Virus record (IMG/VR): IMGVR_UViG_3300037067_007633 | Coordinates: 1 to 64,000 of that record | Direction: 5' to 3' (one strand) | Origin: a virus | Taxonomy: Duplodnaviria; Caudoviricetes | Length of the DNA stretch: 64,000 bases | Part shown: positions 874-62,503 of the stretch, piece after piece | Numbering within the stretch: position 1 is the stretch's first letter | How the letters are laid out: the number at the start of each line of letters is the position of its first letter | Position numbers and translations under genes: made by a program | The notes under the pieces: model-generated | Databases searched by the model: none | What the model was told of the DNA's origin: nothing | The model's input: the letters and a program-made list of their open reading frames with translations, nothing else

Positions 874-1626
874 TTATCTCGCTAAGTTTTCCGATGGTTT
901 AATATTTGGCATTATAAAAATACTATTATCTATTTGTACGTTTAACTTTATATTACTTAATAGAATGGTAATATCAATATCTTTTTTATTCCAAACAATA
1001 TTTATTTGTGATGGAATATTCATTGTAGAAATTTTGGTTACATTTGAAACTATTGCTTGAGACACTAATTCATTTTTTTCATCATAAATTAAATGACCAG
1101 CAATTAATAATAATTTTTTGTTTATAATTGTTATTTTAGTAGTTTTTTTTCCGTTGGGTGCTACCATATTATAATATACACTAATCTGTTTATCGTTTTC
1201 AACTATTTTAATATTTTCCTTATTAATGGTATTTAAACCTAATAATTCCATCATTAATAAAGGATTTAATGAATTATCTAAATTTGTTCTATCTAAATCG
1301 GTATACTTAGAATATTTTAAAGTTGGTGGTTTAAGTCTACGAGCAAAAAACCAAAAAACATCATCGTTAGAACCTAAATCTAACATTAACCTTTTATCTA
1401 TTCTATCTCCATGATTAATCATTCGTAAATTTCTAGGTTTCTGAAAATATATTTGACCTCTAGAACGTGCTACTGGACCATTTTCAGACTTACTACCATA
1501 GTTATATAAATCGCAAGTCATTGTTAAAAGCTTTGAGTTTTGTTCATTTAATTTAATAATAGTGGGATTTTCAACACCTACACCTGCCGATAAGATAGAA
1601 AAAATTAATAGGGATGGTAAAATCAT
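874..1626 (-). CDS. exported LolA-fold-like (lipoprotein-sorting-like) protein
   Basis: N-terminal signal peptide; GQIYFQKPRNLR, DLGSNDDVFWF and C-terminal IPSQINIVW...NVQIDNSIFIMP resemble LolA-like folds. Confidence 0.55.
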   Translation of the reverse strand: MILPSLLIFSILSAGVGVENPTIIKLNEQNSKLLTMTCDLYNYGSKSENGPVARSRGQIYFQKPRNLRMINHGDRIDKRLMLDLGSNDDVFWFFARRLKPPTLKYSKYTDLDRTNLDNSLNPLLMMELLGLNTINKENIKIVENDKQISVYYNMVAPNGKKTTKITIINKKLLLIAGHLIYDEKNELVSQAIVSNVTKISTMNIPSQINIVWNKKDIDITILLSNIKLNVQIDNSIFIMPNIKPSENLAR

Positions 1627-1949
1627 AATGATTTGTCGTTCTCCTTTTCTTTAGAAAATTCTTCCAGGTCTCCATTTTCACTTATTTTTTGATCTTCATA
1701 CGGACTAATTAACTTCCTATATATTTCCATTTTAGCACACTCTAATGTTCCAACAATTTGTGATAATTTTGTATAACTCCATTTATTACCACACTTTAAA
1801 AAGTTAGTTAATATTCTGGTTATAATATAATTTGCTAATCCCCCCTTGTTATAAAACGTAGTATCTTTATAGATAGTATTAATATTATAAAGGAACTGAT
1901 CAATATATTCATCTAAAAATAGTCTATCTTTTTGTGAAATATATGGCAT
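1623..1949 (-). CDS. DUF6899-like conserved phage protein
   Basis: MPYI...GLANYIIT...GTLECAKMEIYRK...PYEDQKISENGD. Confidence 0.65.
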   Translation of the reverse strand: MPYISQKDRLFLDEYIDQFLYNINTIYKDTTFYNKGGLANYIITRILTNFLKCGNKWSYTKLSQIVGTLECAKMEIYRKLISPYEDQKISENGDLEEFSKEKENDKSL

Positions 1950-2122
1950 TATCTATCCTCTTTCCAAAATTTAAAGTTTACGTGATTTTTTCCATCTGGG
2001 TATTTCCATCTATGTAGAATTTTTTGTGTTTCTAGATTATCTATAAATTCCAGTTGTTCTTCCGAAGTAGCATTAGATAATCCAGCTTCACCTAATTCCT
2101 TTTGGTATTTATTGGTCATATA

Positions 2123-2674
2123 TTACCCCACACTTAATTTTTTAAAATCAAAAAACCACCACCGACGACTTTTATCACTAATAGTTCCCATATTAATATT
2201 TGTTAAATAGTTTCTTAAAGATTTCCAGTCTCCAAAATTATGTTCAAAATAATTTGTTCCCCATAACCATAAAGGTAATTTATTCAGTCCTCCTTCACTC
2301 ATAATTAAACAAACCTTTTTACTTCTATTCATTGTAAACAATTCCTCAAGAGTGCCAAAAGTGGGAATTTGAATATTAATATAAAAAATTCCTATATTTG
2401 CCAAATCTGTCATTCGTAAATCAACAGATCTTATTTTACGAACTTCTTTTGATAGCTTTTTATATTGTTTTAACTTTTTAAGTTCATTTAATTTATTAAC
2501 GTATCCTGCATCTTCTTTTAAATTACACATATCTGGTTTATTAGTTGGGTCTAATATAATCATATTCATAGATTTAAGAAATGGAATAAGTTTTTGTCTC
2601 CATTCAATTCCTTTATCTTTAGCGTATTGCATAGGACCAGATAAATAGACTGTACACCCACAAAGTTTATTCAT
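2123..2674 (-). CDS. nucleoside 2-deoxyribosyltransferase-like protein
   Basis: VYLSGPM..WRQ..DP..DL..GTLEE pattern. Confidence 0.7.
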   Translation of the reverse strand: MNKLCGCTVYLSGPMQYAKDKGIEWRQKLIPFLKSMNMIILDPTNKPDMCNLKEDAGYVNKLNELKKLKQYKKLSKEVRKIRSVDLRMTDLANIGIFYINIQIPTFGTLEELFTMNRSKKVCLIMSEGGLNKLPLWLWGTNYFEHNFGDWKSLRNYLTNINMGTISDKSRRWWFFDFKKLSVG

Positions 2675-2750
2675 ATTTTTCCCCTTTATTAAAAATTCAC
2701 TTTACCAATTATATATACATAAAATTAAATATTTGTAAAGTATAATAATA

Positions 2751-60674: not shown

Positions 60675-60677
60675 TAA

Positions 60678-61562
60678 ATGAAAGATATTGTTACTAAATC
60701 AAATGTCGCTAATTATATTTGCGAATTTTCTTGGAGGAATTCATTAACTGGTGGTCTTAAAACAGATATTACATATACTGCCGTTAGTGGTTATTATATT
60801 CGTCAAGGTGGATCTGGAGTTACTATTCCTATTACTAGTACAATAGAAGCTAATCCTTATAACGGGTCAGCAACAAGTGGTGCTTTTTGTGAGACATCAA
60901 TTAAAGGAATTTATCAATTTCACGTTCCTAATAGTTGTTGTATGACTGGTGTTAATAATGTAAAGATTCTTTTAGTTTCTTCTGGTGTCATAGATAAAGA
61001 AATCAATTTATCACTAATAGATAGTGATTTAAGAGATAATAATAGATTAGGACTTACTTCCCTTCCTATTTATTCTCCTGGTTCTGTTTCTGGATTAACT
61101 ATGAATCCAGCTAGTGGTAATTTACAAGTTGATTTACGAAATATAAATGGAAAATCAATAGCTGGAACAACTAACCAAATAGCAGATTCTTTTATTACAC
61201 AATATAATATTCCTAGTCCAGTATTTACTAACGCTAGTGTTAATCAAAAAGGGGATTCTTTTTCTAGATTAGGTGTTCCTGTTAGTGTAAATATTTCATC
61301 CGATATTACAGATTTTAAAAATATTGTAACTAGTGGTGTTATGATAGCGTCTAGCGGTTTAGATAATATTCCAATTACTTCTCCAGAAGGTATTGCTTCA
61401 ACATTTAGAGAAATGCTTGTTCAAACATGGAGAAGGTTCTTTAAAAAAGCAACTATGACTTCTTCAGAGTTAAAAACGTATGCTGATAATGATACCGATG
61501 TATTAACAACACAATCTTTATCAGATAATGGCACTACACAAATACAGGGACCATCTTCATAA
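60678..61562 (+). CDS. putative virion protein
   Basis: ORF track; structural module context. Confidence 0.65.
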   Translation: MKDIVTKSNVANYICEFSWRNSLTGGLKTDITYTAVSGYYIRQGGSGVTIPITSTIEANPYNGSATSGAFCETSIKGIYQFHVPNSCCMTGVNNVKILLVSSGVIDKEINLSLIDSDLRDNNRLGLTSLPIYSPGSVSGLTMNPASGNLQVDLRNINGKSIAGTTNQIADSFITQYNIPSPVFTNASVNQKGDSFSRLGVPVSVNISSDITDFKNIVTSGVMIASSGLDNIPITSPEGIASTFREMLVQTWRRFFKKATMTSSELKTYADNDTDVLTTQSLSDNGTTQIQGPSS

Positions 61563-61564
61563 TA

Positions 61565-62503
61565 ATGAGATTATTTAGTGTCCCTAATAATTCAGTAGAC
61601 AAATACGATAGATCAAGTTGGCTTAGTGCCCCATTTGATTTATCATATTTTTTAATTACATATCCTGTTGATAGAAATTTTGAAATAAATATTGAAAATA
61701 TAAAAAATATATCTTTTACCAATATTTTAAATTGTTCAAACCAAATTGCAATTTTACACTTGGTAATAATAGAAATTGAGAATACACTTAAAATTTTATC
61801 TGAACAAGTTAATGATATAGAAAATCTAAATAGAGTAATTAATATTGGGATTTTAGATCAAGATTTTATATCTAACATTTCATATTCTTCTTCTCCTATT
61901 AATTTTGATACTTTAGTAAAAAAAATGAATATATTGACTGTAAATTTAGAATATTTGGGCAACAATCTTATTAGATTAAACAAAACATTAAATATAGAAT
62001 ATATATCTTATTTATCTACTATATCTATTTTGAATTTGGGAATGTCGTCAGCATTCATTTTATCTTCTATTTTAGATATAGAAAGTAGTAAGCAAATATT
62101 ATTAAATAAAATAATAAATATAGAAAATTTATTGTTTGCTAATAAATATTATACATTAAGTATAGATAATCAACTGTTAAATCTAGCTAATTTTTCTCTT
62201 AATCCAGAATTTCTTAAAGAATATTTTATAGAAAATATACTAGATACTAGTAATATAACTAATTATTCACGTATTTTTATAAATTCTTTAGACTGGCTTT
62301 CTGATATTAATATTGGTGTATCATTAGATAATGAGTTTATATTAGGTATTCGCCAAAATAATATTATTCCAATGTGTTGGGGCGGGATAGAAAATTCATT
62401 GGATAAAATATGGGTTTTGGATTCTAGACAAAGAATTTGGATATATGATATTAGAAGTAAAATATGGAAATTAAATAATAGAAGTAGAACGTGGGGATTA
62501 TAA
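61565..62503 (+). CDS. Ile/Asn-rich low-complexity putative virion protein
   Basis: ORF track; C-terminal W..D.R...W repeats. Confidence 0.55.
   Translation: MRLFSVPNNSVDKYDRSSWLSAPFDLSYFLITYPVDRNFEINIENIKNISFTNILNCSNQIAILHLVIIEIENTLKILSEQVNDIENLNRVINIGILDQDFISNISYSSSPINFDTLVKKMNILTVNLEYLGNNLIRLNKTLNIEYISYLSTISILNLGMSSAFILSSILDIESSKQILLNKIINIENLLFANKYYTLSIDNQLLNLANFSLNPEFLKEYFIENILDTSNITNYSRIFINSLDWLSDINIGVSLDNEFILGIRQNNIIPMCWGGIENSLDKIWVLDSRQRIWIYDIRSKIWKLNNRSRTWGL

Follow-up and report, generated by a model that had tools for sequence, protein, structure and literature searches.

Why should one 9-nt word recur along a phage chromosome, on both strands and both inside and outside genes? This question is raised by CCTATTAAT in a stretch of 64,000 nt (hereafter the window), which is the first 64 kb of IMG/VR record IMGVR_UViG_3300037067_007633. 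The record is a single 160,177-bp contig with a guanine-plus-cytosine (GC) content of 30.2% and is an uncultured tailed phage, here called G0; coordinates on the whole record are prefixed G000. The window contains 22 exact copies of CCTATTAAT, 16 on the plus and 6 on the minus strand, where dinucleotide-preserving shuffles of the window give a mean of 2.0 (standard deviation 1.29, maximum 6). The original prediction, made from the letters of the window, had reported at least 22 copies on both strands, in coding and non-coding DNA, against a rough expectation of about 2; every coordinate and strand that it listed is exact and the shuffles return its expectation. CCTATTAAT is a real, selected and clade-specific DNA word, which drifts together with the genomes that carry it. 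As to its function, our best candidate is a site on which a sequence-specific DNA-binding protein of the phage would land and thereby mark the whole chromosome, although we rate the chance that this is correct somewhat short of even.

Excess and anatomy of the word

The whole genome of G0 holds 45 copies of CCTATTAAT (30 plus, 15 minus), whereas Markov models predict 4.6 (order 0), 3.9 (order 2), 5.6 (order 3) or 11.9 (order 5), and in each of the orders for which all 9-mers were ranked (2, 3, and 5) it is the most over-represented one. The original prediction had proposed codon-preserving shuffles and reading-frame independence as checks, and the excess withstands both. Shuffling the order of codons within genes (a simple gene call of 234 genes, covering 90% of the genome) leaves 10.6 copies (maximum 16), and exchanging synonymous codons within each amino acid leaves 15.1 (maximum 24), with 7 fixed non-coding copies that shuffling cannot move included in both figures. 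Within genes, 38 copies compare with approximately 4 to 8 expected from these codon shuffles; since only about 8 in-gene copies survive the synonymous shuffle, codon choice is bent towards the word.

The census of reading frames shows 12 sense copies that read Pro-Ile-Asn and 4 in the Leu-Leu frame (xC-CTA-TTA-ATx), 16 antisense copies in frame 2 and 6 in frame 0, and 7 copies in non-coding DNA or on the edge of a gene. No copy occurs in the remaining two frames, in which the word would contain a stop codon (TAA or TAG). In total 16 in-gene copies are sense and 22 antisense, so that 38 out of 45 (84%) lie within genes, while non-coding DNA is mildly enriched (1.6-fold in G0 and 2.2-fold in G2, a relative described below). 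Because copies are found in each of the four frames without a stop, in either orientation and also in non-coding DNA, the signal resides in the DNA and not in a peptide, and a peptide or codon artefact is ruled out by this census together with the codon-order and synonymous shuffles. A longer repeat, a paralogue or a small mobile element is likewise ruled out: the flanks of the copies are unrelated and the copies are, therefore, independent sites rather than copies of one repeat. Neither are they 9-bp insertion footprints, as the word sites align to residues, not gaps, in the orthologues of G2. Across the phage chromosome the density is one copy per 2 to 3.5 kb.

Specificity extends to all nine positions. 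Single substitutions reduce the enrichment from 11.4-fold to 0.6-4.1-fold; position 9 is the loosest, and the 8-mer CCTATTAA occurs 74 times against 11.6 expected. The word is preceded by three pyrimidines, with T favored at -7, and followed preferentially by W-T-T. Its spacer is elastic: CCTTATTAAT occurs 17 times (1.2 expected) and CCTTTATTAAT 7 times (0.5 expected), mostly in genes, in several frames and in both orientations, which gives the looser form CC-T(1-3)-ATTAAT. Judged by these preferences, CCTATTAAT would be the core of an asymmetric word of 13 to 16 bp, roughly T-W-W-H-Y-Y-Y-CCTATTAAT-W. On the strand that carries the word, the approximately 15 to 20 nt 5' of it are poor in G and C-rich, at sense, antisense and non-coding sites alike. 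Two further arrangements were also observed: a perfect palindrome, CCTTATTAATAAGG, at G000 142808-142821 between a sigma-like gene and the gene that follows it, and an inverted pair, ATTAATAGG-N7-CCTATTAAT, at G000 155810-155834 within a glycosyltransferase gene, in which opposite-strand copies lie 16 bp apart.

The sites in the window, including the variants in its early region, are as follows.

1604-1612, minus strand: exact CCTATTAAT, sense to gene 874-1626, in frame xC-CTA-TTA-ATx
3812-3820, plus strand: exact copy, antisense to gene 3397-3888
9937-9945, minus strand: exact copy (CCTTCCTATTAAT), non-coding by the gene call, or within the long open reading frame 9648-10055
13394-13402, minus strand: exact copy in rIIA, sense, Pro-Ile-Asn
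16491-16499, plus strand: exact copy, non-coding
21399-21407, plus strand: exact copy in a small gene, antisense
24700-24708, minus strand: exact copy, sense, close to a gene start
24999-25007, plus strand: exact copy, antisense (Ile-Asn-Arg)
31200-31208, plus strand: exact copy (TTCCTTCCTATTAAT), early region, non-coding
32042-32050, plus strand: exact copy (TTCCTTCCTATTAAT), non-coding, adjoining a AACCCCACA element
33420-33428, plus strand: exact copy, antisense to gene 33071-33535
33923-33931, plus strand: exact copy, non-coding, with a tRNA-Ile gene on one side and the DUF932 gene on the other
34950-34958, plus strand: exact copy in the DUF932 gene, antisense
35355-35363, plus strand: variant CCTATTTAT in an early module, 5 nt from the mini-hairpin GGCGACAGCC
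35458-35466, plus strand: exact copy, antisense, over the final codons of gene 35454-36896
37249-37257, plus strand: exact copy, 2 nt from the mini-hairpin GGCGTAAGCC
39978-39987, plus strand: variant CCTTATTTAT, adjoining the mini-hairpin GCCATAGGC
41329-41337, plus strand: variant CCTATTTAT, between the mini-hairpin CGCAAAGCG and an early-promoter -35 box (TTGACT, minus strand)
44985-44993, plus strand: exact copy in the sigma-70 region-2 gene, Pro-Ile-Asn
46099-46107, minus strand: exact copy within the sugar-dehydratase gene, in its 1.7-kb intein insert, antisense
46659-46667, minus strand: exact copy, antisense, in the same intein insert
46789-46797, plus strand: exact copy, sense, Pro-Ile-Asn, in the same intein insert
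50502-50510, plus strand: exact copy in the large terminase gene, Pro-Ile-Asn
54204-54212, plus strand: exact copy in gene 53937-55355, Pro-Ile-Asn
61895-61903, plus strand: exact copy in gene 61565-62503, Pro-Ile-Asn

The densest stretch for CCTATTAAT, with 7 exact copies in 6 kb, belongs to the region 29500-44000 of the window. This region has a GC content of 38-43% (27-30% elsewhere) and weak coding potential, four tRNA genes lie in or near it, and modules of promoter and mini-hairpin are repeated there. The claim that the word or a close variant sits against the mini-hairpin in four early modules holds for all four, with CCTATTAAT, CCTATTTAT or CCTTATTTAT 2 to 5 nt from the hairpins at 35355, 37249, 39978 and 41329; only the first coordinate, given as 35356, needed correction. 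The word had also been placed inside the intein of gmd, and the copies at 46099, 46659 and 46789 are indeed within the insert of the sugar-dehydratase gene. Inteins are not word-dense in general, as this insert is the only dense one (4 copies of the 8-mer in 1.7 kb). In contigs from two separate studies (runs X3 and X4), 45909 is connected directly to 47608 and 1698 bases are missing; the intein is thus polymorphic in natural populations.

G0 encodes rIIA, a portal protein and a large terminase with a LAGLIDADG intein. Its replication and recombination set comprises a split DnaE-type polymerase, DnaB, a Toprim primase, RecA with an intein, and SSB. Ribonucleotide reductase, ThyX, a deoxynucleoside monophosphate (dNMP) kinase, many glycosyltransferases and two DNA methyltransferases (one N6/N4, one Dam-class) are encoded as well, as are two zinc-ribbon proteins in the window, at 5122-5502 and 8992-9645. 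Both ends of the contig carry a 29-mer of identical sequence (TTGACTTTGAACGTATCTTTTAATATTTT; window 12-40 and G000 160053-160081), which suggests a terminal overlap, i.e., a genome that may be circular or terminally redundant. Assembled contigs with zero differences were found in 2022 groundwater and 2018 landfill metagenomes (three studies in all); the sequence is, therefore, not an assembly artefact, and by the same token there are no variants with which conservation of the sites could be tested.

Related words in other uncultured phages

Searches with the portal protein in viral and metagenome collections retrieved uncultured phages at 40 to 56% identity and nothing above 56%. An excess of CCTATTAAT itself is absent from every portal-matched relative examined. 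However, every relative whose portal is at least 45% identical has a top-ranked word of its own, and these words belong to one family (YYCCTGCTNA, with 58 copies in one 162-kb genome):

G2, 162 kb, 36.8% GC: ACTTCCTGC, 53 copies against 0.8 expected
G006, 143 kb, 38% GC (for its 17-kb locus L206 only): YYCCTGCY, 43 copies against 10 of a mirror control, 22 plus and 21 minus
L159, 18 kb, 41.5% GC: TYCCTGCY, 19 copies
G1, 125 kb, 46% GC: tGC-CTTTCCTGC-TNA, 14 copies
G5, 41 kb, 51% GC: CTCTCCTGC-TNA, 6 copies
L160 and L002, 16.7 and 9.5 kb, 49 and 47% GC: TCCCTGCT

The full logo of the G2 word is t-G-Y-A-CTTCCTGC-T-N-A-W. Its copies are divided over the plus (27) and minus (26) strands, over all frames and over both orientations relative to genes (22 to 25), and 11 are non-coding. 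When ACTTCCTGCTGAT of G2 and CCTTCCTATTAAT of G0 are aligned on TTCCT, their sole differences are the first base and three transitions (G to A, C to T and G to A). Since the same core is found at 37-51% GC, and a transition-shifted form of it at 30%, the reader of the word is probably carried by the phages rather than by their presumably diverse hosts.

The positions of the sites are not conserved: only 1 of the 39 mapped G0 sites has a G2 site within five residues in the orthologous protein. Identity to the G2 orthologues is 29% at the word codons and 37% in the flanks, and judged from these alignments the proteins appear to give way to the word, with its density inherited and its places not. 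Conservation of density without conservation of place points to a signal of genome-wide coverage and not to position-specific regulation.

Beyond this group nothing similar was encountered. G3 and G4, whose portals are 40% identical, contain no dispersed word and only clustered repeats in their early regions. In G3 (L150-L151; G003 95-108 kb) the element AAGGACTTAC(GTCG) occurs 12 times in the early region, on both strands; it is related to a GACTTAcg element in the early modules of G2 and probably corresponds to the cassette boundaries of the window that are marked by the mini-hairpin and AACCCCACAT. A 15-mer scan of viral contigs gave scattered chance matches only and no close relative with the same word, and megablast and tblastn against GenBank phages revealed no near relative. 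The word CGCAGGGAG in L222, an unrelated phage contig of 33% GC, was considered as a distant family member and rejected. It occurs on one strand only, usually as ACCGCAGGGAG, and precedes at least 13 successive gene starts (L222:152-13126) by 9 to 10 nt; it proved to be a conserved leader that includes the ribosome-binding site.

Candidate readers and competing explanations

The original prediction suggested a binding site for a genome-coating or partitioning protein, a Chi-like signal, or a programmed nick or modification site. The data uphold the common part of this, a DNA-level signal read by some factor, for which the homologous, drifting word of the relatives is further support, but single out none of the functions listed.

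The view that the word is a candidate binding site for a protein which marks the chromosome is favored because strand use is even in two of the three complete genomes, because the order of orientations is random, because the word precedes early promoters at varying distances and in both orientations, and because the length of the site is typical of monomeric or bipartite binders. Random order was found in G0 and in G006 (23 runs against approximately 22.5 expected). In G2 four early promoters carry the word 15 to 22 nt upstream of the -35 box, one of them in the orientation opposite to that of the other three, and across G0 and G2 together the distance to early-promoter -35 boxes is 2 to 22 nt, again in either orientation. 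The word is no regular part of early sigma-70-type promoters, as none of 19 matches to a strict pattern (TTGACW-N16-18-TANHWT) has the exact word or one of three variants within 70 nt upstream; the match at 18642 carries the near-variant TTCCTTCCTATTTAA. Nor is it a ribosome-binding site, which in this phage is AAAGGAG at -12 to -8; few CC-T(2-3)-ATTAAT variants lie upstream of start codons.

If this interpretation is correct, selection on the DNA itself would keep the word at its density of one copy per 2 to 3.5 kb, and a phage-encoded protein would bind the duplex as a monomer or asymmetrically, in either orientation. It could thereby tag phage DNA, in which the word is approximately 10 times (G0) to 60 times (G2) more frequent than by chance, and may also sit upstream of several of the sigma-70-type early promoters. 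Protein and word would co-evolve, with YYCCTGCTNA in the relatives and its transition-shifted form in the AT-rich G0, and binding might serve the control or shut-off of early promoters, protection, or organization of the chromosome.

Several observations weigh against a landing site of this kind. Ordinary regulators do not need 84% of their sites within genes. The plus strand is preferred in G0, both by the exact word (30:15) and by the elastic family (71:40, up to 111 copies), and this preference is present in all three gene blocks (minus strand 1-44 kb, plus 44.5-86 kb, minus 86-160 kb); it is therefore independent of transcription and suggests a process with polarity. So do the data for G2, where the spacing within each orientation is more even than random (coefficients of variation of 0.55 and 0.71 against approximately 0.95; P = 0.001 and 0.04) and orientations alternate (36 to 40 runs against 27 to 30 expected; P = 0.003 to 0.012). 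The G-poor 5' flank is a feature more characteristic of sites that are recognized in single-stranded DNA. Finally, no reader was found and no family tested tracks the word.

The search for a reader consisted of Pfam and PHROG scans of approximately 100 proteins and of six further Pfam families genome-wide, and it did not find HU/IHF, ParB, a UvrD/RecB-type helicase or a clear HNH nuclease. The "helix-turn-helix (HTH) proteins at 43.5-45.9 kb" that had been suggested for a DNA pull-down amount to one sigma-70 region-2 protein and one weak HTH match below the cut-off, in a protein of 167 aa at 43570-44073, while 45097-45894 has no family match; no evidence ties any protein of this interval to the word (44127-44426 was not scanned). 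More generally, sigma-like and weak HTH proteins exist in G0 and none is linked to the word. The DUF932 protein (33969-35198), which is encoded where the early region is dense in the word, is rejected as reader, as it occurs in relatives without the word (L211-L219); a PDB sequence search with it gave no match. The replication module falls outside the contigs of G1, G3, G4 and G5, which makes gene presence or absence in them uninformative.

A strand-specific processing site, read on one strand as a programmed nick site or as a preferred start or loading site for the DnaG-type primase and DnaB helicase of the phage on lagging-strand templates, is a serious possibility, although we doubt it more than we believe it. 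The nick motifs of other phages are the best documented analogue (the 9-mer WACTRTGAC occurs 13 times where 0.7 is expected; PMC11780129). The G-poor flank, which is kept whatever the gene orientation, the transcription-independent strand bias of G0, and the regular per-strand spacing and alternation in G2 would all be in line with such a site, as is the prediction that, in single-stranded form, the G2 word takes part in less base pairing within its own context than within random windows (0.57 vs. 0.50, p = 0.005). The phage also encodes a DnaG-type Toprim primase of 370 amino acids with a C-P-x-H zinc motif (G000 127037-128149, minus strand), which adjoins DnaB, was missed by our simple gene call based on scoring of open reading frames, contains one copy of the word (127878) and is 40% identical to the primase of G2. 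CTG, present in the words of the relatives, and CTA/TTA, present in that of G0, are initiation trinucleotides of DnaG. The T7 primase is reported to recognize a context of approximately 15 nt at sites every 1 to 6 kb (PMC12839067).

Yet nick motifs are known on one strand only, whereas the ratios here are 30:15 (G0), 27:26 (G2) and 22:21 (G006). Double nicking at the opposite-strand copies 16 bp apart (G000 155810 and 155826) or at the palindromic variant (142808-142821) would break the duplex, and no clear HNH nuclease was found in G0, although the search did not extend to relaxase or Rep families. In other phages, primases as similar to that of G0 as the one of G2 is (38 to 41% identity) are flanked by 12 to 21 kb without a dispersed word, which weakens the role of primase. 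The regular spacing and the accessibility effect are missing in G0, with per-strand gaps of up to 14 to 18 kb, and in G006, which has a 24-kb gap without the word; even spacing is, therefore, no general property, being significant in G2 only, and G0 looks random.

It seems unlikely that the word is a Chi-like signal, at which a helicase-nuclease of host or phage would read the purine-rich complement ATTAATAGGAAGG (GCAGGAAGT in the relatives) and switch to RecA loading. Such a signal would protect phage DNA and feed recombination-dependent replication. The density is close to that of Chi-rich phages (one per 1.86 kb in LLS, 32 copies in MD8; PMC12315714), the word occurs in all frames, its complement is G-rich and purine-rich like known Chi, and both a bacterial-type RecA and one PD-(D/E)XK nuclease (G000 123988-124959) are encoded. 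On the other hand, 9 to 16 positions are specified and not the 5 to 8 of known Chi, Chi-rich phages are one-sided and lack recombination genes where G0 has both orientations and RecA, and no UvrD/RecB-type helicase is encoded. A host-read Chi, as originally envisaged, fits poorly with a word of 13 to 16 nt common to phages of 30 to 51% GC, and the near-identical cores at 37 to 51% GC disfavor any host-specific reader.

We regard it as quite improbable that a phage methyltransferase or a hypermodification enzyme modifies the DNA specifically at the word and so provides a self mark. The N6/N4 and Dam-class methyltransferases, the many glycosyltransferases, the dNMP kinase and ThyX could supply the enzymes, but methylation sites are normally 4 to 8 bp long and, far from being over-represented, usually avoided, neither methyltransferase is linked to the word, and the glycosyltransferases may instead serve virion glycosylation. 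Even less credence is due to a functionless by-product of composition, codon usage or context-dependent mutation bias. The AT-richness of the genome and the favored codons that make up the word (CCT, ATT, AAT and TTA) speak for it; nevertheless, the word exceeds every null tried, including the synonymous shuffle, it has nine specific positions, and a GC-richer homologous word is equally enriched in relatives of different composition. A promoter element for one of three sigma-like proteins of the phage, suggested by these proteins and by the TATTAAT within the word, which resembles a -10 box, can be dismissed almost entirely, as sense and antisense copies are mixed in G0 (16 and 22, with 7 non-coding) and in G2 (22 and 25), most copies lie deep in genes, and a separate motif, tGGTGTATA(at), directly precedes the structural genes.

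The latter motif, or ATTGGTGTA, occurs just upstream of structural and some other genes (window 51678-51743 and 56890-57020; G000 66406-66467, 67557-67622, 85513-85567 and 122394-122443) and is likely a middle or late promoter for one phage sigma-like protein. The three sigma-like proteins are encoded at window 44529-45110 (region 2), G000 142871-143362 (region 4 and a weak region 2) and 146094-146699 (region 4), and imply a multi-step transcription programme. The tGGTGTATA motif is also enriched in G1, where GTGTATAA and ATTATACACC are over-represented. G1 (L026-L032) contains in addition 12 copies of CCTTGCTTA (0.8 expected) and L003 has 7 of CTTGCTTA (1.1 expected); the former resembles the MotA box (TGCTTtA) of T4 middle promoters.

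Relation to known words and significance

Dispersed words of phage clades are an already known kind, but the present combination matches no described class. The nick-associated WACTRTGAC motif is found inside and outside genes and is kept in 61 phages of little DNA similarity, with unknown function (PMC11780129). Like the word described here, the motifs of tf, Rembedalsseter, T5/BF23 and phiKMV-type phages are asymmetric, at least 9 nt long, enriched 10- to 20-fold, present in and outside genes with no regard to reading frame, and kept across a clade. They differ in that they number 4 to 14 per genome on one strand, compared to 45 to 74 copies on both strands here (up to 111 for the looser form), some of which face each other on opposite strands at a distance of 16 bp. 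To our knowledge, the purpose of nick motifs is still unknown after 50 years.

The stoperators of Cluster A mycobacteriophages (L5 gp71, Bxb1 gp69) are tens of asymmetric sites of approximately 13 bp, the sequence of which co-evolves with that of the binding protein. They lie mostly between genes and in one orientation, in temperate phages with a known repressor, in contrast to the word of G0, 84% of which is within genes, in both orientations, with no repressor known. DNA uptake sequences, i.e., the uptake signal sequence (USS) of Pasteurellaceae and the DNA uptake sequence (DUS) of Neisseria, are asymmetric 9- to 12-mers that occur on both strands and in all frames, form lineage dialects, and are kept by biased choice of codons and residues. 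These are, however, cellular features read by the competence machinery, and we know of nothing comparable in a phage. In the Chi-saturated phages (coliphage LLS and Pseudomonas phage MD8) the signal is, as here, the most over-represented oligomer and has a similar density, but it is an 8-mer of the host, one-sided and clustered near one end, in genomes without recombination genes (PMC12315714). Extended T7 primase sites (a pentanucleotide with a 10-nt 3' flank) are comparable in their context of approximately 15 nt, with an A/T-rich 3' flank, and in the use of both strands; they are read on single-stranded DNA, with active sites every 1 to 6 kb, but have not been reported as an over-represented long word (PMC12839067).

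What sets the present word apart is that 13 to 16 asymmetric positions and a G-poor flank are combined with a T spacer of elastic length, a transition-shifted variant, and a distribution over both strands and all frames. The selected genome-wide words known from phages are limited to nick motifs, host Chi, stoperators and phage promoters. In addition, the clade offers a comparative series: seven or more related genomes of 30 to 51% GC share a single word family that changes by simple transitions. This makes the reader findable by co-variation and the function testable with oligonucleotides. The word is also a lineage marker that can be used in annotating this uncultured clade. Should the word serve as a self mark, it would be relevant to the question of how large lytic phages distinguish their genomes from host DNA without modifying bases.

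A more far-reaching idea, in which we place rather little confidence although we take it seriously, is that this clade of uncultured phages of approximately 140 to 160 kb from groundwater and landfill writes a self word of about 16 nt on both strands that would be read in single-stranded form by a protein of the phages' own replication or recombination machinery, for instance as a specific site for primase or helicase loading or as a phage counterpart of Chi. Word and single-strand reader would then drift together with genome composition, from CCTGCTGAT to CCTATTAAT. If true, the DNA metabolism of these phages would be organized around a private sequence code of a kind that has not been described for any phage.

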